DNA of 64,000 nucleotides from a virus (taxonomy: Duplodnaviria; Caudoviricetes). The stretch covers positions 51,897-115,896 of IMG/VR virus record IMGVR_UViG_3300034108_000283; one strand, written 5' to 3'. Below are positions 8,270-27,091 of this stretch, piece by piece. The position numbers were made by a program, and so were the translations under genes. Numbering within the stretch: the stretch's first letter is position 1; the number at the start of each line of letters is the position of its first letter. The notes beneath the pieces are model-generated. The model saw only the letters and a list, made by a program, of their open reading frames with translations, had not been told where the DNA came from and made no database searches.

Positions 8270-8335
8270 TGAGCTAATAACTTTCATTTTAGGATTAATA
8301 CTAAGAGCCCCGGAACTACAGTCTGGGGTTTTTTT
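8270..8335 (+). ncRNA. Candidate small RNA 1
   Basis: Promoter, about 35 nt with no ORF, then a GC hairpin and U-tract. Confidence 0.5.
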
Positions 8336-18038: not shown

Positions 18039-18111
18039 AAATACCTAGTAACCTATTGTAGTTTCAATTATTTTTAGTATATTATAAGTATATATTTATA
18101 ACATAATAACA

Positions 18112-18378
18112 ATGGCCACAGAATCACTACCAATAGCAATTTTTATAGCAAGTACCATTTTTGCTATATTTGGATACTTTTTAAAAATGATCCATGGAGA
18201 TGTCAGAAAAAATACAGAAGAACTTGGAAAGTTAAAAGGTAAAATAGAACTAGTACAACAAGAAACACAGATAAAATATCAAGCATTGCAAGAGCTTACT
18301 CAGCTTGAGATAAAAAACTTAGCAAAGAATGTAGGTGAATTATCAGATGCTGTTAAGTTGTTTATATCTAACAAATAA
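18112..18378 (+). CDS. Holin-like protein (1 TM plus coiled coil)
   Basis: N-terminal TM then coiled coil; first gene of the lysis block. Confidence 0.55.
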   Translation: MATESLPIAIFIASTIFAIFGYFLKMIHGDVRKNTEELGKLKGKIELVQQETQIKYQALQELTQLEIKNLAKNVGELSDAVKLFISNK

Positions 18379-18380
18379 AT

Positions 18381-18632
18381 ATGAAAGAATTGAAAGGAAG
18401 ATGGAAAGCCAAAACACCTAAGTTTTGGAAAAGAGTACAACAGATTGCAATAGTAGCCGGAACAATAGCAGGTGTTATTATTGCAGCTCCAGTGGCTTTA
18501 CCAGCAGCCATTATAACAGTAGCTGGATATGTAGCAACAGCAGGAACAGTAGCTGCTACATTATCACAATTAACAGTAGAAGATGCTAAAGAACTAGAAG
18601 ATGTTGACAATTCAACAGACAGTTTGAAATAG
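18381..18632 (+). CDS. Putative holin (2 TM)
   Basis: RWKAKTPKFWKRV followed by two hydrophobic helices ending SQLTVE; typical of Bacteroidota phage holins. Confidence 0.7.
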   Translation: MKELKGRWKAKTPKFWKRVQQIAIVAGTIAGVIIAAPVALPAAIITVAGYVATAGTVAATLSQLTVEDAKELEDVDNSTDSLK

Positions 18633-18666
18633 ATTACTAAATTTTAATAACTAAAAACAAATAAAA

Positions 18667-18969
18667 ATGGCAAAGAAAAAAGAAGTTAATGTTGAGTTAG
18701 AAGTAACAACAAAAACTAAAAGAGCTTATGTTAAGAAAGATAACAAAAACTTAGATGTAGTTATTGATACACCTAAAGTTGATGTAGAAGTACACGCTAC
18801 AGAAACAGAACAACATGTTAAAATTGATACTAAGAAATTAGATATTGAAATTACTAAAACTGCAGAAGGTTCTAAAGTTACAATAGATGCTGATAACAAA
18901 ATACTAGAAAAAGTAGGAACTACATTTAGCTCTTGGATACTTAAACGTCTAGCTAAAAAAAATAGTTAG
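18667..18969 (+). CDS. Hypothetical beta-repeat protein in the lysis block
   Basis: Internal repeats VVIDTPKVDVEV / VKIDTKKLDIEI and an amphipathic C-terminal helix. Confidence 0.65.
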   Translation: MAKKKEVNVELEVTTKTKRAYVKKDNKNLDVVIDTPKVDVEVHATETEQHVKIDTKKLDIEITKTAEGSKVTIDADNKILEKVGTTFSSWILKRLAKKNS

Positions 18970-18994
18970 TAATAAGGTTTAGTAATAACCTGCA

Positions 18995-20110
18995 ATGAAA
19001 AATTTACCAAAAGAAGAGTTATTAAGCAGGCTTGAAGCAATTAATAGAAGTAACGCTATTATTTACTTTGACCTTGGTGGCACCATCACAGGTGTTAATG
19101 ACATTTTTTTGGAAGCAATGGGTTACGGTAAAGGTAATCATGAAGACATTATAGGTAAGCACCATAGCATTTTTGTATGTGATGATTACTCAAGATCACT
19201 TGAGTATGAAAAGTTTTGGGATATCTTAAGAAGTGGTAAGCATTACACTGGAGAGTTTGAAAGAAGAAAAAAAGATGGAAGTCTTATAAATCTTCAAGCA
19301 ACTTATAATCCTATTTTAAATGAAGATGGTAAGATTACCAAGATAATGAAAATTGCTACTGACGTTAGTGTAATTGTCAATAGTAAGAAACAGATAGATG
19401 CAATCAATAGAAGCACTGCTCTGATTAATTTTAACATAGATGGTTTTATAACAGATGTAAATTCTATATTCTTAGAAACCATGGGTTATAAGGGCAATGA
19501 AAAAGCCAAAGTCATTGGAAAACATCACAGTGTTTTTGTAAGCTATGAGTATTCTAAGTCTGATGAATATGCTAAGTTCTGGGAAAGCTTGAGAAAAGGT
19601 AAGTACTTTGATGGAATCTTTGAAAGAAAAAAAGTAGATGGTTCTACTGTTTATTTGCAAGCATCTTACAACCCTGTATTTGACAGCAAAGGAAATATTA
19701 CAGATGTAGTTAAAATTGCAACTGATGTTACTGAAGCTGTAACTAACAAGGCAAAAATAGATGATCTTACAAAAAACTTACAAATAGAACTTGAGAATTC
19801 TCAAAAACTGAAAAACTCAATAGAGATAGAAAAGGATGCAGCTTTAAATGACTTAGATGTAATGATGAAAAAAAGTCAAAGTGAGCTGATAAAAATTATT
19901 GTCAAAGTTGCATTGTCTGTTATAGTTGGGGTTGGAGTTGTGACAACAGTATTATACTGGATGGCTATTATAACAAATCAAGACACACAGATTATTGGTT
20001 CAACATGGAGTAACATGTTTAGTGTATTATTAACAAATGCCTTCTCTATAGTTGGTACAATCATGGGTATCAAGTATGCTACTCAGGAAGGCGGTAAAGA
20101 AAAAAAATAA
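18995..20110 (+). CDS. Tandem PAS(-PAC) sensor with coiled coil and two C-terminal TM helices
   Basis: Two repeats of AINRSxAxIxF..G.I..VN..FL..MGY....IGKHHS.FV...EY..FW..LR.G....G.FER.K.DG....LQA.YNP.....G.I....KIATDV, as in PAS-containing chemoreceptors; no MCP, kinase or GGDEF output domain. Confidence 0.9.
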   Translation: MKNLPKEELLSRLEAINRSNAIIYFDLGGTITGVNDIFLEAMGYGKGNHEDIIGKHHSIFVCDDYSRSLEYEKFWDILRSGKHYTGEFERRKKDGSLINLQATYNPILNEDGKITKIMKIATDVSVIVNSKKQIDAINRSTALINFNIDGFITDVNSIFLETMGYKGNEKAKVIGKHHSVFVSYEYSKSDEYAKFWESLRKGKYFDGIFERKKVDGSTVYLQASYNPVFDSKGNITDVVKIATDVTEAVTNKAKIDDLTKNLQIELENSQKLKNSIEIEKDAALNDLDVMMKKSQSELIKIIVKVALSVIVGVGVVTTVLYWMAIITNQDTQIIGSTWSNMFSVLLTNAFSIVGTIMGIKYATQEGGKEKK

Positions 20111-20114
20111 AATT

Positions 20115-20390
20115 ATGAAAAAGATTTTTAAAGAATTAGTATCAGATGCTAATGAGATAAATGAGCAAAGCTTTGTTGGAGTAGTAGCATTTTTTGCTAT
20201 GGTATTTATTTTAATAGTTGATGTAGTTACAGGTATTTGGGGTAAAGAACTGGTCATAAAAGAATTTATCTTTGATGGCTTTATGATCATTACTCTTGGA
20301 GCCTTTGGAATTACTACAGCAGGTAAAATTATGTCAAACAAAAAAAACAATCAAAATGAAAATAACCAAGACGGGGAAAGCGGGAATTGA
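20115..20390 (+). CDS. Two-TM holin-like membrane protein
   Basis: Start revised to MKKIFKEL; two TM segments; directly upstream of the lysozyme. Confidence 0.65.
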   Translation: MKKIFKELVSDANEINEQSFVGVVAFFAMVFILIVDVVTGIWGKELVIKEFIFDGFMIITLGAFGITTAGKIMSNKKNNQNENNQDGESGN

Positions 20391-20814
20391 GATGATTAAA
20401 GCTTTTGAAGGGTTTAGAGGAACTCCTTACAAATGTTCTGCAGGTGTCCCTACAATAGGATACGGAGCTACTTTTTATCCAGGTGGTAAAAAGGTAACAA
20501 TGACAGATGCAGCTATAACAGAAGAACAAGCTGTTGAACTGTTAGCAAACATGCTTGTAAGTTTTGAAAAATATGTAGATAGCTATTGTGTAGATACTAT
20601 CACACAAAATCAGTTTGATGCATTAGTTTCATTTGCTTACAACTTAGGACCAGCAAATTTAAAATCTTCTACATTACTTAAAAAAGTAAATGCAAATCCT
20701 AATGATGAGTCAATCAAATTAGAATTCCTAAAGTGGGTTAAAGCTGGAGGTAAAACATTAAAAGGTCTTGTAAGAAGAAGAGAGGCTGAAGCAGAATTAT
20801 ACTTTAAAAAATAG
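20356..20814 (+). CDS. Endolysin, GH24 lysozyme
   Basis: FEG..x..YKCSAGVPTIGYG (E-x8-C-x5-T), QNQFDALVSFAYNLG, GLVRRREAEAELY. Confidence 0.93.
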   Translation: MKITKTGKAGIEMIKAFEGFRGTPYKCSAGVPTIGYGATFYPGGKKVTMTDAAITEEQAVELLANMLVSFEKYVDSYCVDTITQNQFDALVSFAYNLGPANLKSSTLLKKVNANPNDESIKLEFLKWVKAGGKTLKGLVRRREAEAELYFKK

Positions 20815-20818
20815 AACC

Positions 20819-21280
20819 ATGCAATTAAGTAAAAATTTATCATTAGCAGAAGTAACAAGAAGTGAAACTGCAAAGAGAAAAGGAATTAGCAATATGCCAA
20901 CTCCTGAGCACATTGAGAACTTTAAAAAGTTAGCTGAGAATGTCTTTCAGCCAATCCGTGAGCACTTTGGTGTTCCTATTCATATTTCATCTGGGTACAG
21001 AAGCAAAGCTTTGAATACTGCTGTTGGAGGAAGTTTGTCCTCACAACATTGTCAAGGTGAAGCAATTGATATTGATATGGATGGTACATCAATAACCAAT
21101 GCTCAAATCTTTAACTTTATCAAAGACAATTTGAATTTTGATCAAATGATTTGGGAATTTGGTACAGACACTAATCCTGACTGGGTTCATGTATCTTATG
21201 AATCTACAGGTAAACAACGTAAACAAATTTTAAAAGCTATTAAACAGGGTGGGAAAACAATTTATACACCTTATAAATAA
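20819..21280 (+). CDS. Peptidase M15 (M15A/M15_3) endolysin
   Basis: ISSGYRS..LN..VGGS..SQH..GEAID and WVHVSY motifs. Confidence 0.92.
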   Translation: MQLSKNLSLAEVTRSETAKRKGISNMPTPEHIENFKKLAENVFQPIREHFGVPIHISSGYRSKALNTAVGGSLSSQHCQGEAIDIDMDGTSITNAQIFNFIKDNLNFDQMIWEFGTDTNPDWVHVSYESTGKQRKQILKAIKQGGKTIYTPYK

Positions 21281-21286
21281 AAAGTA

Positions 21287-21445
21287 ATGAAGTTTAGAAA
21301 CAACTGGAAAGGCTCAAGAAGACAGTGGGATAAAATAATGCTAAGACTGAGAATCTCAGCATTAGATATCTTTACATTAGAACTAGATTATTCCAGAGAC
21401 TTCTATCTTCTAACAGTTTTAAACTTTACTATTAAAAACAGATAA
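21287..21445 (+). CDS. Small hypothetical protein (52 aa, not in the ORF track)
   Basis: MKFRNNWKGSRRQWDK...; fills the gap exactly. Confidence 0.55.
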   Translation: MKFRNNWKGSRRQWDKIMLRLRISALDIFTLELDYSRDFYLLTVLNFTIKNR

Positions 21446-21447
21446 CT

Positions 21448-21741
21448 ATGAAAAATGGATTAAAAGGAGTTACAGATGCTACAGTATTCTGTAAGTCAAT
21501 GCAAAAAAATAGCCCTAAACCAATGATTAGATCAATGAAAAGCTATGAAGTAGGGGGTGCTACTGAACAATGCGGACCTGGTGATAGAGGAAAAGGTTGC
21601 AGAAAAAAAACAAAGTATAAAAGCAGTGGTAGATCAAGCAGTGGTGGTGATGCTACTTTAGTGGGAAAAATAGCTGGAGGATTAGCTGGTGTAGGTGCTG
21701 CACTTGGTCTTGGTAAATATGTAAAGAATAACAAAGATTAA
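21448..21741 (+). CDS. Small basic protein with C-terminal hydrophobic helix
   Basis: YEVGG motif; resembles the 33976-38960 cluster proteins. Confidence 0.65.
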   Translation: MKNGLKGVTDATVFCKSMQKNSPKPMIRSMKSYEVGGATEQCGPGDRGKGCRKKTKYKSSGRSSSGGDATLVGKIAGGLAGVGAALGLGKYVKNNKD

Positions 21742-21762
21742 GTTAACTACTTAAAGTATACA

Positions 21763-21792
21763 GATCCAGGTATGTACTATGCCTGGATTTTT
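21763..21792 (+). terminator. Intrinsic terminator
   Basis: GATCCAGGTAT...ATGCCTGGATT-TTT. Confidence 0.7.
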
Positions 21793-21856
21793 GTTTTTAA
21801 ATATATCTAGTTTAAACTTTTATTGTATATTTGTCTAAACTTAAAATTAAAAACCA

Positions 21857-22162
21857 ATGGAAAACCAACAAGAACAAATGGAGAATCTATCTCCAGAACA
21901 GCTAGCAGCAAGAAAAGAAGAGATGAAACAATTCTTTGAAGAGGCCTTACCTTACTTAAAAGCACAAGCTGAATATGAAAAGTTATTAGCTGATATCTCT
22001 GAACTTAAGTTAAGAAGACTTCAATCAGATCATCAGTATGCAATGGCTATGTATCAGATAAACAATCCAGAACCATTAGAAGAAGATCTTGATGAAGAAG
22101 GTGTGGAATTAGAAGGTAGAGTTAATTCTGAAACAGCTAAAAGAAAGCTTAAAAAGAATTAA
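21857..22162 (+). CDS. Hypothetical coiled-coil protein
   Basis: 101-aa ORF after a host-type promoter. Confidence 0.75.
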   Translation: MENQQEQMENLSPEQLAARKEEMKQFFEEALPYLKAQAEYEKLLADISELKLRRLQSDHQYAMAMYQINNPEPLEEDLDEEGVELEGRVNSETAKRKLKKN

Positions 22163-22164
22163 TA

Positions 22165-22545
22165 ATGGCACTTGTTAATCAGGTACAGAAGCGTGTCAAG
22201 ATGCCTAAATGGGATGTTGTAAAATTTCAGATACTCACACATTGTTATATTAACCGTATAACCATGAGTGAATCTGATTTGAACTGTCTTACCTTGTTAA
22301 GTTTTAATGAACCTATAGAACTTACAAACTTTTGTTTGGATGCTTCTGCAGAAGAAGATTGGATATTTAAGTCACCACAGACTGTTAGAAACTGTATTAA
22401 TAAAGCAGAGAAAAACAATCTTGTGATAAAAGATACAGATAATAAGAAATTGATTATGCTGAATCCAAACTTAATGATTCAGACTAAAGGTTCAATTTTA
22501 CTTGACTATAAATTCTTAGGCAATGATACCGAAGAAGGCCAATAA
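22165..22545 (+). CDS. Putative winged-HTH DNA-binding protein
   Basis: FKSPQTVRNCINKAEKNNLVIK helix-wing pattern. Confidence 0.5.
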   Translation: MALVNQVQKRVKMPKWDVVKFQILTHCYINRITMSESDLNCLTLLSFNEPIELTNFCLDASAEEDWIFKSPQTVRNCINKAEKNNLVIKDTDNKKLIMLNPNLMIQTKGSILLDYKFLGNDTEEGQ

Positions 22546-22912
22546 GTTATATAAACAGTTGTCAGAAGATTTAAATGTTGAAGAGGATTTGATAGATAAA
22601 TTTATTGAACACTACTACAAAGATATAAGGTCAGCATTGGTAAACTTAAAATATCCAAGAATCAATGTTGATGGTTTAGGTCACTTTGTAGTAAAACCCA
22701 CTTTAGTAAGATCTCATATACCAAAATTTACTAAAGATTTATCTGAACATGATACTTCAACATTTACAGCTTACCATACTAAAAAAGGCTTAGAGTTAAA
22801 GTTAGATCAGCTTATAGAACTAGAACATAAAATAAGTTTAGAGGAAATAAGAAAAGAAGAATTTAAAAAAAACAAAAATGAAAGCAGTACTAAAAACAAT
22901 CTGGGAGAATAG
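22523..22912 (+). CDS. HU/IHF-like DNA-binding protein
   Basis: Helix-helix then RINVDGLGHFVVK; crAss-like synteny upstream of terminase. Confidence 0.6.
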   Translation: MIPKKANKLYKQLSEDLNVEEDLIDKFIEHYYKDIRSALVNLKYPRINVDGLGHFVVKPTLVRSHIPKFTKDLSEHDTSTFTAYHTKKGLELKLDQLIELEHKISLEEIRKEEFKKNKNESSTKNNLGE

Positions 22913-23186
22913 AAAAGGTATCCTAGAAGGTATTAAGAACTCAATCATTAGAGATGAGTTTGTAGAAGACATAGCACGGATGAGACATGACATCTGTGAT
23001 GGCTGTGAGCACTTAGATACTAAAGGTAAAGAATGTGCTGTAAAGAAAACACAACCCTGTTGTGCTGAGTGTGGATGTTCATTAGCATTTAAGACCCGGT
23101 CATTATCATCAGAGTGCCCATTAGGTAAATGGGATGCTATAGCTACAGAAGAACAAGAAGAAGAATTAGATAACCTTAAAGATTAA
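22878..23186 (+). CDS. Cys-rich metal-binding protein
   Basis: RxxICxxC...CxxCGC....K......CPLGKW. Confidence 0.7.
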   Translation: MKAVLKTIWENRKGILEGIKNSIIRDEFVEDIARMRHDICDGCEHLDTKGKECAVKKTQPCCAECGCSLAFKTRSLSSECPLGKWDAIATEEQEEELDNLKD

Positions 23187-23190
23187 TATT

Positions 23191-23532
23191 ATGTATATGG
23201 ATCCAAATAAATATCCTATTGGAATGTTAGTTAATGACCCTACTCAAATAGTTAATACTAATCCTATTCCTGGACAAACTATAACTACTACCACAGCAGA
23301 TGGAATATTTAGTAGAATGAACACAGTTCTGGAAGACCCATGGGTACATCCTTTGAAAGCTATAGAAGATAAAATTACTAAGCTAGAAACAGAGAACAAG
23401 TTTCTAAGACTAAAGATACTTTCTATAGAGGGTAAGTTTACACAGGAAGAGGTAACTAATATCAGAAAGATGTTGATATCTGAAGATGAAGCATCTAGAA
23501 CATTAGCTAATACTATTATAGAAAATGCTTAA
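23191..23532 (+). CDS. Hypothetical protein
   Basis: 113-aa ORF within the operon. Confidence 0.7.
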   Translation: MYMDPNKYPIGMLVNDPTQIVNTNPIPGQTITTTTADGIFSRMNTVLEDPWVHPLKAIEDKITKLETENKFLRLKILSIEGKFTQEEVTNIRKMLISEDEASRTLANTIIENA

Positions 23533-23535
23533 AAG

Positions 23536-24366
23536 ATGATAAAGTTTAATGCAGATAATCATAGTTACACCAGTATAGATGGAGAAGCTATTGACTGGAT
23601 AAGTGTAACAACACTTGTTTCCCATTTTAAGAAACCTTTTGATGCTAAAGCAGTAGCAGAGAAAGTAAGTAAAAGCAAAAGATCTAAATGGGCTGGAGTA
23701 GATCCTAAGATTATCCAAGAGATCTGGTATAATGAATCTACTAGATCCACTACTCTTGGTACATGGTATCATAACCAAAGAGAAGATGACTTGTGTGCAT
23801 TAGCATCATTAAGTGTAGAAGGAACTACTATACCTGTATTTAGACCTGCAGAGGTTAAAGAAGGTGTCAAGATAGCTCCATCACAAAAATTAGAACCAGG
23901 CGTGTATCCAGAACATATGGTCTATTTAAGATCAGCAGGTATCTGTGGACAATCAGATTTAGTGGAAGTAGTCAATGGTAAAGTAAACATCATTGACTAC
24001 AAAACTAATAAAGAGATAAAGAAAGAGTCATATGTAAATTGGGAAGGAATATCTGATAAGATGTCTCATCCTGTAAATAACTTAGATGACTGTAACTTTT
24101 ATCATTATGCTTTACAGCTCAGCATTTATATGTATATTATATTGAAGCATAATCCTAAACTAAGACCCGGAAATATATTTATACACCACATAACATTTGA
24201 AGTAGAGAAAGAAGATCAGTGGGGATATCCTATTGCCAAACTAGATGACAATGGAGAACCTATAGTAAAAGAAGTAATACCAATGGAAGTACCTTATTTA
24301 GTAGATGAAGTGCATGCTATTATTCACTATCTTCATGACAACAAAGCCAAAATTAAAAAGAAATAA
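23536..24366 (+). CDS. PD-(D/E)XK RecB-family exonuclease
   Basis: SVTT, GTxxH, GQSDL...IIDYKT, YALQLSIY motifs. Confidence 0.85.
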   Translation: MIKFNADNHSYTSIDGEAIDWISVTTLVSHFKKPFDAKAVAEKVSKSKRSKWAGVDPKIIQEIWYNESTRSTTLGTWYHNQREDDLCALASLSVEGTTIPVFRPAEVKEGVKIAPSQKLEPGVYPEHMVYLRSAGICGQSDLVEVVNGKVNIIDYKTNKEIKKESYVNWEGISDKMSHPVNNLDDCNFYHYALQLSIYMYIILKHNPKLRPGNIFIHHITFEVEKEDQWGYPIAKLDDNGEPIVKEVIPMEVPYLVDEVHAIIHYLHDNKAKIKKK

Positions 24367-24368
24367 CA

Positions 24369-24884
24369 ATGCTGATTAAACTATTTGATGTACAGAATAA
24401 AACAGTTGTTCCTACTGAACACTGTTATACACTGAAGTCTCTTAAAGATATAATGGATGATTATCCAGATGACTATCTTAAAATATATCAGTATTTATTT
24501 TATATGACATGCCCGGATCCAGATATGAATCCTTTCTTCCATACACCCCATATAGAGAAAGAATCATTAATCATGCGGGAGATAGAAGCAGAATTCTCTA
24601 CAGAAGACACTGAGATATATAATGCATTAAGATTCTGTGAGAAACTATATGAAACTCCAACCTCACGCGCGTACGGAGGTATGCAGAAAGCACTAGATAG
24701 AATATCTAATTACCTAGCTACTGCACAGATTACTGATGGTAAAGATGGTAATATAGCTCAGATAAGAGCATTAGCAAAAGACTTTGATGGTATTAGACAA
24801 TCCTTTAAAGGAGTCTACAAAGATCTACAGGATGAACAACAAAGCAAAGTCCGTGGTGGTCAGGGTCTTGCATATGATAGTTAG
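24369..24884 (+). CDS. Conserved protein upstream of TerL (possible terminase small subunit)
   Basis: Position and size; helical, ends KVRGG. Confidence 0.5.
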   Translation: MLIKLFDVQNKTVVPTEHCYTLKSLKDIMDDYPDDYLKIYQYLFYMTCPDPDMNPFFHTPHIEKESLIMREIEAEFSTEDTEIYNALRFCEKLYETPTSRAYGGMQKALDRISNYLATAQITDGKDGNIAQIRALAKDFDGIRQSFKGVYKDLQDEQQSKVRGGQGLAYDS

Positions 24885-24886
24885 TC

Positions 24887-27091
24887 ATGAGTCAAATCTT
24901 TGAAGACATACCAACTTGGGATAATGGTAATTGGACTACCACATCTTTTGATAGCAGAGAAGAGTTTGCTACATATCTGCGCTCAATATTTAAGGAACCC
25001 GGTCAGTATGAGTTTGATGATGTTAGTACAGAGTTATTTGTATCAGAATCAAATAAGTTTAGAAAGCTTGGTATATATACTACAGCTCCTTTTAAGTCTA
25101 AAGACTTTATTAACTACTGGGATGACCAGAAAGCTAAATGCAGAAAAGGTGTGCTGATTAAACACGGGACTAAAGCTTGGTTCTTAGCAAGAGAGTACTA
25201 CATGTGGCTTAACTTCCTACCTATCTTTAACAAAGAGATACAACAATTTGGATTTGCTGATATCCGGGATGCTCAGTATCATATGGCTTTATATGAACTA
25301 TTAGCAGAACTAAACTATAAACATGTAGCTATCTTAAAGAAACGTCAGATAGCATCTTCCTACTACCATATGGGTAAGCTTATAAACCAGCAATGGTTTG
25401 AAGCCGGTGTTACTCTTAAAGTTGGAGCAAGTCTCAAGGATTATATAAATGAGAAAGGATCCTGGAAATTCCTACAGGAATATGCAGCATTCTTAAATGA
25501 GCATACTGCATGGTACCGTCCTATGTCACCAGACAAAGTAATGATGTGGCAACAAAAGATTGAGGTCAGAAAAGGTAATAGAAAAGCTGAGGTAGGTCTT
25601 AAAGGTACTATACAAGGTATGTCATTTGAGAAAGATCCTACAAATGGTGTAGGGGGTCCAGTTAAGTACTTCTTTCATGAGGAAGCAGGGATTGCTCCTA
25701 AGATGGATCAGACATATGAGTACATGCGTCCTGCCATGAGATCTGGTTTAATTACAACAGGGATGTTTATAGCTGCAGGATCTGTGGGTGACTTGTCTCA
25801 ATGTGAGCCATTAAGAAAAATGATTGTAAAACCTTTAGATAATGATGTGTATTCAGTAGAATCAAATCTTGTTGACTCTAAAGGTACTATTGGTTTATCC
25901 GGACTGTTCATACCTGAACAATGGTCAATGCCTCCATATATTGATAAATATGGTAACTCACTTGTTACTGAAGCCTTAGAAGCTTTAGACAAACAGTTTG
26001 AAGTTTGGAAAAAAGAATTAGACCCAGAGACATACCAGTTGAGGATTTCTCAGCATCCAAGAAATGTAGAAGAAGCATTTGCACATAGAACAGTATCTGT
26101 ATTCCCAACACATCTTGTTACAGCACAGGAAAGAAGAATAGAAGATAAAGAATATGCATATGAGTTCTTAGATATCTCAACAGATGAGAATGGGAAGCCT
26201 AGTGTTAAAGCATCTAATAAAAGACCTATAATGGAATTCCCTGTAACTAAGAATACAGAGGATAAAACAGGTGTACTTGTTGTATGGGAAAGACCAATAA
26301 AAGATCCTGCATTTGGACAGTATTATGCATCTATTGACCCCGTGTCTGAAGGTAAGACAACTACCTCAGAATCATTATGTTCTATATATGTAATGAAAGC
26401 ACCGGTAGAAGTAACTAAAGTAACAGGTACAGAGACAGAGACTTATATAGAACCAGATAAGATTGTAGCCGCATGGTGCGGAAGGTTTGATGATATTAAT
26501 AAAACACACCAGAGACTAGAGCTAATTATAGAGTGGTATAATGCATGGACAGTAATAGAGAATAACATCTCATTATTCATCCAGTATATGATATCTAGAA
26601 AAAAACAAAGATACTTAGTACCTAAGAGTCAGATTATGTTCTTAAAAGATTTAGGAGCTAATGCTAATGTATTCCAGGAATATGGCTGGAAAAACACCGG
26701 TACTTTATTCAAAGCTCACCTTCTTAGTTATGCTATAGAATATACTAAAGAAGAATTAGATATAGAAACAAAGACAGACGGTACTATAGTTAGAACTAAA
26801 TATGGTATAGAAAGGATTCCTGACCCTATGTTACTTAAAGAAATGAGAGCATATGCAGATGGAGTCAACGTGGATAGGCTAGTTTCATTCTGTGCACTTG
26901 TTGCATTTATGAAAATACAGCAGTCTAATAGAGGTTATACAAGAAGAACAATCATGGATGATGCAGCTAAAAACTTGCAAAAGTCAGAAAATTTGTTTAA
27001 ATTAAAGAGTAGTCCGTTCCGGCATATGGGTAAATCTTTTTATTCTGGAGGACAGGGATTTAAAAGATCCCCATTTAAGAATCTTAAATAA
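24887..27091 (+). CDS. terL: Terminase large subunit
   Basis: LKKRQIASSY Walker A-like motif, FFHEEAG Walker B, and RNase H domain (ASIDPV, IENN, NVDRLVS). Confidence 0.92.
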   Translation: MSQIFEDIPTWDNGNWTTTSFDSREEFATYLRSIFKEPGQYEFDDVSTELFVSESNKFRKLGIYTTAPFKSKDFINYWDDQKAKCRKGVLIKHGTKAWFLAREYYMWLNFLPIFNKEIQQFGFADIRDAQYHMALYELLAELNYKHVAILKKRQIASSYYHMGKLINQQWFEAGVTLKVGASLKDYINEKGSWKFLQEYAAFLNEHTAWYRPMSPDKVMMWQQKIEVRKGNRKAEVGLKGTIQGMSFEKDPTNGVGGPVKYFFHEEAGIAPKMDQTYEYMRPAMRSGLITTGMFIAAGSVGDLSQCEPLRKMIVKPLDNDVYSVESNLVDSKGTIGLSGLFIPEQWSMPPYIDKYGNSLVTEALEALDKQFEVWKKELDPETYQLRISQHPRNVEEAFAHRTVSVFPTHLVTAQERRIEDKEYAYEFLDISTDENGKPSVKASNKRPIMEFPVTKNTEDKTGVLVVWERPIKDPAFGQYYASIDPVSEGKTTTSESLCSIYVMKAPVEVTKVTGTETETYIEPDKIVAAWCGRFDDINKTHQRLELIIEWYNAWTVIENNISLFIQYMISRKKQRYLVPKSQIMFLKDLGANANVFQEYGWKNTGTLFKAHLLSYAIEYTKEELDIETKTDGTIVRTKYGIERIPDPMLLKEMRAYADGVNVDRLVSFCALVAFMKIQQSNRGYTRRTIMDDAAKNLQKSENLFKLKSSPFRHMGKSFYSGGQGFKRSPFKNLK

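Follow-up and report, generated by a model that had tools for sequence, protein, structure and literature searches.

A tandem-PAS protein ending in a membrane hairpin in the lysis block of a crAss-like phage: a candidate module for tuning lysis timing

A 64,000-nucleotide stretch of DNA from an uncultured crAss-like phage of lake water (hereafter, the window) carries, among genes for small membrane proteins and endolysins, an open reading frame (ORF) that joins two PAS domains to a two-helix membrane hairpin. We propose that its product is an accessory sensor-to-membrane module that tunes the timing of holin-dependent lysis, a reading to which we assign a probability of about 0.5; the protein would probably let a signal inside the host adjust the time at which the cell bursts. 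The architecture of this protein, the selection on its gene, its gene context, its optionality and its modular wiring are demonstrated directly in the sections below. A literature search found no paper describing a PAS-PAS sensor fused to a lysis-cassette hairpin.

Table 1. Features of the lysis block (positions in the window; aa, amino acids; TM, transmembrane)
Positions	Strand	Feature	Basis
18072..18089	+	A/T-rich motif, then TAnnTTTA-like element; possible lysis-block promoter	recurrence in window
18112..18378	+	88-aa protein, N-terminal TM helix (1 TM), charged helical tail	no family match
18381..18632	+	83-aa protein, two TM helices, acidic C-terminus	no family match
18667..18969	+	100-aa soluble Lys/Glu/Thr-rich protein	ORF list; cluster in 18/80 loci
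18995..20110	+	PAS-PAS-helix-hairpin gene (371 aa)	ATG start; Pfam, Kyte-Doolittle, AlphaFold2
19055..19363	+	PAS domain 1 (residues 21-123)	Pfam; model pLDDT about 94; nearest solved structures MmoS 3ewk, NifL 2gj3
19418..19726	+	PAS domain 2 (residues 142-244)	Pfam, model; aligns to Aer PAS domain 8dik
19730..19975	+	Continuous predicted helix (residues 246-327), last third = TM helix 1 (about 305-326)	Kyte-Doolittle, model
19985..20083	+	Near-invariant 33 residues T331-T363: outer loop and TM helix 2	59 distinct proteins
20115..20390	+	91-aa protein (g20115), two TM, charged C-tail	no family match
20356..20814	+	GH24 endolysin	Phage_lysozyme E 4.4e-43; phrog_7 endolysin E 5.9e-57
20819..21280	+	M15 peptidase endolysin	Peptidase_M15_3 E 2.5e-21; phrog_894 endolysin E 5e-39
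21287..21741	+	Two small conserved genes closing the block: 52 aa; 97 aa, basic, Gly-rich hydrophobic C-terminus	
21762..21790	+	Terminator-like hairpin, then T run; closes the block	

Architecture and conservation of the PAS-hairpin gene

The gene at 18995-20110 occurs once in the 115,896-base virus record, and its product has the two PAS domains and two C-terminal TM helices that a preliminary description of this DNA had reported. Pfam recognises two PAS stretches (PAS_3, E 8.6e-25, 87.3 bits against a cut-off of 25.6, over two stretches; PAS_9, 1.6e-19, 70.5 bits; PAS, 51.4 bits; PAS_4, 45.1 bits), TIGR00229 matches at 93.7 bits, and Foldseek compares the AlphaFold2 model (mean pLDDT 84) with tandem-PAS structures at a probability of 1.00. 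Each PAS fold in the model, at a pLDDT of about 94, is a five-stranded sheet flanked by helices; these are followed by a helix of 82 residues, a turn and a second helix (332-367), and Kyte-Doolittle peaks place the two membrane segments at about 298-326 and 339-360. The coiled coil suggested earlier is not borne out by a simple heptad count, in which the hydrophobic fraction of a/d positions is at most 0.5, the evidence being instead for one long predicted helix. The outer loop comprises only about four unstructured residues (328-331), and the 296-residue N-terminal part is cytoplasmic. A spanin was considered and rejected, there being no signal peptide, no periplasmic coiled coil or lipobox, and a large cytoplasmic N-terminal part with so short an outer loop.

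No HAMP, MCP or kinase output was detected in the ORF with Pfam and NCBIfam profiles, and the protein has no DNA-binding domain. Because Pfam gives no MCPsignal match at E <= 0.1, the JGI label ‘methyl-accepting chemotaxis protein’ reflects the PAS part only. PAS repeats of this type had been said to be normally followed by an MCP domain; among ten sampled short bacterial relatives, MCPsignal lies above the Pfam cut-off in one and below it in one more.

The ORF is under purifying selection and is not a chance ORF: across 62 distinct DNA sequences the minor synonymous fraction is 0.18-0.28 by region, against 0-0.13 for the non-synonymous fraction, with the last nine residues (363-371) as the exception (0.14 against 0.22). 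Residues T331-T363 show no amino-acid change in 59 distinct proteins while synonymous variation is normal (0.228), and the exact 33-aa string recurs in 170 of 170 related loci and in 117/120 and 119/120 cluster representatives. A core, IgSTWSNmF..LLTNaFSIVGTIMG.KYA, is common to 47 stand-alone and 108 fused hairpins, and the junction motif AL.DLD...KK.Q.ELI..IV..AL.VI.GVG is found in the fused protein and in stand-alone hairpin proteins alike.

Gene context, optionality and modular input

All genes of the lysis block lie on the + strand, and the PAS gene does sit, as first described, among three genes for small membrane proteins and two for endolysins (GH24 and M15) that share its orientation (Table 1). 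The membrane proteins (18112, 18381, 20115) are ‘holin-like’, the term first applied to them, by size and TM count but not by family, since Pfam, PHROGs and NCBIfam assign none of them to a holin family. The late motif placed ahead of the block does recur at two more sites, 33799 (one mismatch) and 8332 (three mismatches), giving three matches against 0.85 expected; at least three matches arise in 4 of 100 shuffles, so that statistical support for it is weak. No lysogeny genes were seen in the window.

The most constant neighbour of the PAS gene is a g20115-like gene, present in 68 of 80 related PAS loci (directly adjacent in 61) and not seen in the other 12. In the window g20115 is co-oriented with the PAS gene and starts 4 nt past its stop; its predicted layout is that of a class-II-holin-like two-TM protein, and it is the likeliest candidate for the holin of the block. 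The other small genes are less regular companions (relatives of 18112-18378 in 16/80 PAS loci, plus many PAS-less loci; the 18381-18632 cluster in 17/80), and Phage_holin_4_1 genes lie near the PAS gene in many related loci. A recognised endolysin, of GH24, M15, PG_binding_1-type or GH19, stands no more than three genes away in 71 of the 80 loci, directly adjacent in 41, and placement in a lysis cassette is thus conserved. Among the nine lysin-less loci, five have sequence ending less than 600 nt past the gene; another three (L036, L052 and L069) have sufficient flank, yet no recognised lysin.

A contrary case, in which homologs lie mostly in bacterial chromosomes or away from lysis genes, had also been set out; the hairpin was seen instead on phage contigs only, with lysins near most of the PAS loci. 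These contigs include four phage-like ones binned into MAGs, and the hairpin was not convincingly found in 400 sampled genomes from the phylum of one such MAG. Fused hairpins occur on at least 510 viral contigs and stand-alone forms on at least 262, and the stretch studied here occurs in 20 lake-water runs.

The PAS-hairpin gene is optional, being missing from close relatives with the same cassette. One locus (L163) has a TerL 98% identical to that of this phage, yet is without the PAS gene, and its lysis block is 80-87% identical throughout, against 97% for the adjoining backbone. In a set of 80 loci collected with g20115, 51 are without the hairpin, and in 48 of these the slot is occupied by two other small TM/coil genes; among 80 GH19-lysin loci only two have it. 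The gene also appears to move horizontally between unrelated phages: a homologue 89% identical comes from a 160-kb record whose capsid is of the T4-type Gp23 (E 4.2e-74) and in which nothing matches the TerL of this phage.

The input to the hairpin varies. One-PAS forms make up 17 of 62 loci in one set and four in another, and in a split form, exemplified by locus L317, a HATPase_c kinase (E 3.9e-15) and a Response_reg receiver (30.6 bits against a cut-off of 30.2) accompany a 191-aa hairpin protein; over its last 119 aa this protein matches residues 248-366 of the fused one at 59% identity (E 9e-44), and no g20115-like gene was seen beside it. Kinase and receiver both lie directly upstream of relatives of this protein in 76 of 80 loci, and nine of ten sampled split-form kinases have PAS domains. 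The 80 split-form loci include 35 with a g20115-like gene and 43 with a lysin; in 23 neither was found within the sequence covered. The phage receiver consists of Response_reg, with no DNA-binding part found, and, as a lone domain, probably acts by protein contact. Neither HATPase_c nor Response_reg was detected in the 115,896-base record of this phage (98% complete), and the window holds the fused, one-piece form of the kinase-receiver-hairpin unit.

Candidate roles of the hairpin and of the PAS domains

In the mechanism that we favour, an accessory, horizontally mobile, phage-only device would be formed by two cytoplasmic PAS domains on one long rigid helix running straight into the membrane hairpin, the predicted output part, both ends of which would lie on the cytoplasmic side; in other phages the hairpin is a separate protein, encoded after a PAS-bearing histidine kinase of the phage and a receiver of one domain. 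Presumably made late, with the class-II-holin-like protein at 20115-20390 and the two endolysins, the PAS-hairpin protein would most likely serve as an antiholin-like or co-holin-like partner that shifts the moment of inner-membrane opening by the holin, in answer to a cue sensed within the infected host. Lysis timing as the output, the partner, the direction of the shift (delay or trigger) and the cue are what we infer. In keeping with an antiholin, which is dispensable and encoded with a holin, the gene is absent in close relatives and adjoins a holin-like gene in 61 of 80 loci, and its optionality, together with a near-invariance unlike that of holins, indicates a modulator rather than the essential holin. 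The preliminary description thus stands as to architecture, placement and the idea of sensor input and membrane output, to which the split form adds support; its redox, flavin or haem cue, its holin-like helices and its MCP claim are unsupported or weakened.

The strongest alternative, which we regard as unlikely although deserving of serious consideration, is a membrane-anchored sensor with a non-lysis task that rides as an accessory gene in a recombination-prone lysis region; it might act on a conserved protein of the host inner membrane (one of respiration, transport or division), in superinfection exclusion or in countering host defence. That loop and TM helix 2 (TM2) are invariant in crAss-like and T4-type phages alike suggests that they contact something conserved, probably in the host; such invariance across unrelated phages is explained by a conserved host target no less well than by a phage holin as partner. 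Nor is there any sign of co-adaptation between hairpin and g20115: members of the g20115 family differ widely (42% mean column identity, against an invariant hairpin), and PAS-linked and PAS-less variants interleave on the family tree, with at least four changes forced. The slot is moreover a swap site, as the L163 lysis block illustrates, and the 23 split-form loci without a lysis gene in the sequence covered point the same way. Mere hitch-hiking, however, does not predict that placement by lysins and holin-like genes should be kept across cassettes, unrelated lineages and both fused and split forms, and in the window the PAS gene is co-oriented with, and only 4 nt from, a holin-like gene.

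That the protein is itself a holin, its hairpin oligomerising into a hole at a time set by the cytoplasmic sensor, seems improbable. Class II holins are N-in/C-in two-TM hairpins with a short charged C-tail, and the predicted hairpin, the tail and the cassette position of the present protein would fit such a holin; TM2 has a Ser/Thr/Asn/Gly run along one side, and no other candidate of the g20115 type was seen beside the hairpin in the 12 loci and in L317 noted above. Yet these traits accompany a 296-residue cytoplasmic part and a gene that close relatives lack although the remainder of their cassette is retained, most loci have another holin candidate adjacent (g20115-like or Phage_holin_4_1), and the moderate amphipathicity of TM2 (moment 0.92, reached by 183 of 2000 shuffles) is not significant. 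The invariance of the hairpin is also at odds with the great diversity typical of holins. Sequence and profile comparisons link the helices, first called holin-like, neither to a holin, antiholin or spanin family of Pfam, PHROGs or NCBIfam nor to the neighbouring TM proteins.

As regards input, a redox or oxygen sensor that works through flavin, like Aer, NifL and MmoS, is doubtful; an input of this general kind had been put forward first. In sequence comparisons the closest solved structures (3ewk, E 1.5e-07; 2gj3; 8dik) are PAS domains that bind FAD, and 3ewk is also the top Foldseek match of the model; haem-binding DosP and FixL score nearly as well, however, so that fold does not identify the cofactor. 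FAD has been assigned by motif to the PAS domains of BdlA and McpS (PMC8694187), whose subtype may differ from that of the present domains. The flavin pocket includes H53, N85 and R115 in Aer and H132, N164 and R195 in MmoS, the Asn contacting the flavin and the Arg lying over flavin N5 (PMC9668731). At these positions both PAS domains keep only the His (H57 and H178, nearly invariant or invariant in the homologue alignment), the Asn being replaced by a conserved Arg (R90, R211) and the Arg by a conserved Ala (A121, A242), replacements that are also conserved in the PAS domains of bacterial relatives. With one of three pocket residues kept, flavin or redox sensing is not supported, and the earlier proposal of a redox, flavin or haem cue fares accordingly.

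Relation to known systems and significance

Lysis timing sets burst size and phage fitness, and to our knowledge the only studied cases in which it depends on a signal are T4 and ICP1 lysis inhibition, both of which read superinfection from outside the cell. T4 lysis inhibition combines holin T with the antiholins RI (periplasmic) and RIII (cytoplasmic) (PMC11413866). Like the module proposed here, these are accessory phage proteins, dispensable for lysis itself, that set holin timing on a signal, RIII working on the cytoplasmic side and RI being able to work membrane-anchored; unlike it, they respond to superinfection in the periplasm, and there is no relation in sequence or fold. The present system has instead a cytoplasmic PAS pair as input (a kinase-receiver relay in relatives) and a two-helix hairpin as predicted output. 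ICP1 holin TeaA and antiholin ArrA (PMC7182436) provide a second, unrelated case of a phage antiholin adjusting lysis timing, with no sequence relation and no reported sensor domain of a known signalling family.

The FAD-binding PAS domains of Aer, MmoS and NifL are the best structure and sequence matches of the present ones, which differ in two of the three named flavin-pocket residues and lead to no HAMP, MCP or kinase output. In Aer, too, a membrane hairpin anchors a cytoplasmic PAS domain. LytSR, a bacterial sensor kinase and regulator tied to the holin/antiholin-like membrane proteins CidAB/LrgAB, acts through transcription; its link from kinase and regulator to membrane protein resembles the split form in relatives; there, by contrast, the receiver of the phage is a single domain in which no DNA-binding part was found. 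VqmA-Phage reportedly has a PAS ligand-binding domain whose signal leads to host lysis, and is said to control the switch between lysis and lysogeny as a soluble transcription factor. Unlike that phage-encoded receptor of vibriophage VP882 (PMC8284805), the present protein is membrane-anchored, without a DNA-binding domain, and lies in a late lysis block.

A fuller picture, which we entertain as possible but would back at less than even odds, is a phage-private signalling pathway whose output is a membrane protein machine rather than gene expression: PAS sensors, wired to the hairpin directly or via a phage kinase and lone receiver, would have it gate holin triggering, so that unrelated uncultured aquatic phages would time bursting by the metabolic state of the host, and the invariance of the hairpin would mark the place where it touches a conserved component of the host inner membrane, one by which energisation of that membrane is reported or controlled.

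If true, a PAS sensor or phage phosphorelay coupled to a hairpin in lysis cassettes would constitute a second principle of lysis timing, one that reads the internal state of the host. The module appears widespread. Because it is small and self-contained, and because nature supplies it in one-PAS, two-PAS and relay versions, expression in laboratory strains can address the question directly. The hairpin could also serve to mark lysis cassettes in uncultured phages.

The PAS-hairpin protein and its lysis block

The 371-amino-acid product of the PAS-hairpin gene combines two PAS domains (PAS_3, E 8.6e-25) with a long helix and a two-helix membrane hairpin (the ‘tail’), so that the ORF with two PAS domains and two C-terminal transmembrane (TM) helices of the preliminary description is borne out by Pfam, AlphaFold2 and hydropathy alike. 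The AlphaFold2 model (mean pLDDT 84) comprises two PAS folds and a predicted unbroken helix (residues 246-327) that a short turn separates from a second one (332-367); hydropathy places membrane segments at ~298-326 and 339-360. Because the protein lacks a signal peptide, its N-terminal 296 residues and its C-terminus should be cytoplasmic, with the membrane helices joined by a very short outer loop. The absence of a periplasmic domain rules out a spanin and that of a signalling domain an MCP; to judge from its sequence, the protein is neither an MCP nor a member of any described holin family. We favor, at a probability of about one half, its interpretation as a sensor that alters the time of holin-dependent membrane opening. 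Full-text literature searches turned up no publication that places a PAS protein among phage lysis genes.

The parent IMG/VR virus record (115,896 bases, of which the window is the right-hand 64 kb) is judged 98% complete. The genes for its large terminase, portal and capsid match head-gene PHROGs, and the closest GenBank relatives of the terminase (~25% identity) belong to crAss-like, Flavobacterium and Cellulophaga phages; the phage is therefore a distant crAss-like phage. Its host is probably a member of the Bacteroidota.

Features of the lysis block in the window and of related viral loci (L-numbers)
Feature	Position	Context
88-aa protein, 1 TM	starts 18112	co-oriented with PAS gene
83-aa protein, 2 TM	starts 18381	co-oriented with PAS gene
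Soluble protein	starts 18667	co-oriented with PAS gene
PAS-hairpin gene	18995-20110 (+)	member of co-oriented block
91-aa protein, 2 TM	starts 20115	4 nt past stop of PAS gene; co-oriented
GH24 lysozyme, then M15 peptidase		3' of 20115 gene; co-oriented
Two small genes		end of block, 3' of M15 peptidase gene
Second of these two genes: 97-aa very basic protein, Lys/Arg/Ser/Gly-rich, with Gly-rich hydrophobic C-terminus	21448-21741	end of lysis block
Terminator-like hairpin	21762	closes block
Slot gene pair (91 aa, 117 aa)	L163:4379-5004 (same coordinates in L161, L169)	directly upstream of 20115-type gene
158-167-aa proteins, lipoprotein-type signal (Cys after hydrophobic run), C-terminal TM helix	L009:221-697; L169:3614-4114	upstream of cassette

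None of the small membrane proteins of the block matches a described holin family in Pfam, PHROGs or NCBIfam. The tail resembles the neighboring TM proteins at a best E of only 5.6, at which kinship with them was rejected, and a protein-atlas search with residues 250-371 returned no usable match. The predicted complex of these residues with the 20115-like protein scored 0.00 against a mark of 0.32, a result that counts neither for nor against. An uncultured Caudovirales phage encodes a 218-aa protein (BFVD A0A6J5PRT3) that aligns with 52% identity over 121 columns and may represent either a stand-alone hairpin or a one-PAS form.

Three further features of this region were recorded. An in-frame ATG at 20076, 13 codons 5' of the 20115 start, would add MLLRKAVKKKNKI and has a lambda-like dual-start look; the extension (20076-20114) overlaps the end of the PAS gene. 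Dual-start regulation was rejected because only a subset of relatives keeps the longer frame open; this ATG may have arisen as a side effect of the invariant KYAT codons. The motif TTTTAGTATATTATAAGT, followed some bases further 3' by TATTT(A/G)TA, occurs on the + strand at 8332, 18072 and 33799, sites that may represent a phage promoter class. The 97-aa basic protein has similar counterparts (clusters of 93 and 106 aa) in relatives and could act as a peptide that disrupts the outer membrane, as phiKT gp28 reportedly does (bioRxiv 10.1101/515445).

Placement and exchange in lysis cassettes

In IMG/VR, at least 179 contigs encode a protein closely related to the entire PAS-hairpin protein, and at least 510 encode the tail. 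Across the best 80 loci, the PAS-hairpin protein is 82-99% identical and its flanks are mosaic. Clustering of the neighboring genes, with clusters named using Pfam and PHROGs, yielded four kinds of endolysin (GH24, M15, PG_binding_1 with a phrog_3000 domain, and GH19), two Phage_holin_4_1 clusters, and a lipoprotein with a C-terminal TM helix. A recognized lysin lies no more than three genes away in 71 of the 80 loci (adjacent in 41), and a 20115-type gene, encoding a relative of the window's 91-aa protein, is present in 68 (immediate neighbor in 61). Five of the nine loci without a nearby lysin stop <600 nt past the gene and L061 stops 755 nt past it; L036, L052 and L069 contain no recognized lysin, despite enough flank. 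Genome collections yielded only four MAG contigs with the gene, bearing four unrelated taxon labels and phage-like neighbors. Homologs with this architecture are therefore concentrated neither in bacterial chromosomes nor away from lysis genes, and the lysis-cassette setting first described for the window extends to most of the 80 loci.

The tail had no convincing match in 50,697 GenBank phage records, nor in 400 other genomes from the phylum of one carrier MAG; a bacterial origin of the hairpin was rejected, the latter set giving five borderline matches (E 0.004-0.008), of which the two viewed in alignment matched only hydrophobic segments. The lipoprotein-type proteins of L009 and L169 look like unimolecular spanins; in the block of the window, no counterpart was observed.

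When relatives were gathered with the 20115 protein as query, the best 80 loci comprised 24 with the PAS-hairpin gene, three with a stand-alone hairpin, two cut at the contig edge, and 51 without a hairpin. The PAS query also matches tails, and three of the 29 loci scored as having PAS are split-form hairpins, in which the hairpin protein follows separate kinase and receiver genes. In 48 of the 51 hairpin-less loci, the position immediately 5' of the 20115-type gene is filled by two other genes (the slot gene pair), encoding single-TM proteins with helical tails and no family match: one of 91 aa (N-out, tail cytoplasmic) and one of 117 aa (N-in, helical part periplasmic), possibly holin regulators or envelope-spanning parts. 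After removal of duplicates, this pair was found in none of 94 groups with the fused form (PAS and hairpin in one protein), and together with the split form in two of 35 groups; mutual exclusion of the PAS gene and the pair thus holds for the fused form only.

One PAS-less relative, L163, has a terminase 98% identical to that of the window's phage and backbone DNA 97% identical (window 21764-25000), and its whole lysis block (compared with 18100-21760) is 80-87% identical; the lysis cassette is a recombination hot spot. A quick tree of the 20115 family intermingles PAS-linked and PAS-less variants, and its supported branches require four or more changes, so that the swap has occurred repeatedly and the 20115 protein shows no co-adaptation with the PAS gene on this tree. 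The PAS-hairpin gene also crosses phage lineages: a 160-kb record whose Gp23 capsid is T4-type, and in which nothing matches the terminase of the window's phage, carries it at 89% identity. In three (X1-X3) of four lake metagenome runs, examined as DNA contigs only, summed contig depth over the PAS gene (window 19024-19760) is 3-5x that of the flanks, and in the same three runs the similarity of contigs breaks off precisely at 18994, immediately ahead of the start codon; both observations fit many genotypes sharing the PAS gene. The sequencing runs listed as containing this stretch included none of RNA.

Action on a membrane target outside lysis is a less likely, secondary reading. For the favored reading, a sensor of lysis timing, conserved placement, adjacency and optionality are the grounds for inferring a link to lysis.

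A near-invariant hairpin and a modular input

The loop and second helix (T331-T363) are unchanged across 59 distinct proteins. The exact 33-residue string is contained in 117 of the 120 cluster representatives from one database search and in 119 of the 120 from another (each of the four deviating representatives has a single substitution), as well as in all 170 of 170 hairpin-bearing loci. Synonymous variation in this stretch is as high as elsewhere (0.228 vs. 0.18-0.24), and a nucleotide-level constraint on TM2 (an RNA element or overlapping gene) was rejected on that ground. The hairpin is the most constrained part of the protein, and its constraint reflects protein-level selection rather than a DNA element; none of the explanations tested accounts for its invariance. 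Holins, in contrast, are usually diverse, and for all its two membrane helices and neighboring endolysin genes, the PAS-hairpin protein is unlikely to be a sensor-gated holin itself.

The input, for its part, is modular. One-PAS versions of ~250 aa (four in one listing, 17 of 62 new loci in another) include proteins of 247-260 aa (L233, L241, L271, L110 and others) in which the PAS1 N-cap is joined to a PAS2-like core; these look like PAS1/PAS2 chimeras, as if generated by unequal recombination between PAS repeats. A tail-only search gave, among the best 120 of 1887 proteins, only fragments of the PAS-hairpin protein; each of the 13 inspected starts either within a PAS domain or in the helix that follows PAS2 directly, and they provide no evidence of stand-alone hairpins. 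The split form was located by scanning relatives of the GH19 lysin and searching their loci with a profile of tails: in L317, a kinase (HATPase_c, E 3.9e-15) and a receiver (Response_reg, 30.6 bits, cut-off 30.2) precede a protein of 191 aa with a 72-residue N-domain; its last 119 residues share 59% identity with residues 248-366 of the protein encoded in the window. This protein has 262 relatives in viral contigs; among the best 80, kinase and receiver both lie directly upstream in 76 a 20115-type gene is present in 35, and a recognized lysin in 43. Nine of ten sampled kinases contain one or two PAS domains (two also have GAF), and both hairpin classes have in common the core IgSTWSNmF..LLTNaFSIVGTIMG.KYA and the helix-membrane junction. 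Neither kinase nor receiver was found in the window's own phage, which has the one-piece form.

By sequence and fold, the PAS domains best match FAD-binding MmoS, NifL and Aer, with haem-binding DosP and FixL close behind. Flavin-based redox sensing, which concerns the input and is compatible with any output, is nevertheless doubtful: of the residues that the study of the Aer structure names for the flavin pocket (Aer H53, N85, R115; MmoS H132, N164, R195; PMC9668731), the His alone is retained (H57, H178); Arg (R90, R211) stands in place of the Asn and Ala (A121, A242) in place of the Arg, so that two of three tests fail. The pocket residues are conserved with bacterial relatives, and the pocket is thus conserved but unlike the Aer/MmoS flavin type. 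These relatives are long multi-PAS signalling proteins, and, apart from two proteins that belong to the phage family, none of the best 150 extends into the hairpin; contrary to the expectation that such PAS repeats are normally followed by an MCP domain, an MCP signalling domain scores above the cut-off in just one of ten short relatives.

A proposed route from cue to lysis

By analogy with PAS sensors that have signalling helices, a cue bound or lost in the PAS pair would change the long helix's packing or register and, because that helix runs on as TM1, the hairpin would move or re-associate in the membrane. Such a shift would alter the moment when a co-expressed holin-like protein opens the membrane, letting the two endolysins reach the wall. 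T4 lysis inhibition (holin T, RI, RIII; PMC11413866) and the ICP1 system (TeaA, ArrA; PMC7182436) have no sequence, fold, signal or compartment in common with the PAS-hairpin protein, which, as proposed here, would resemble both in being a dispensable timing input.
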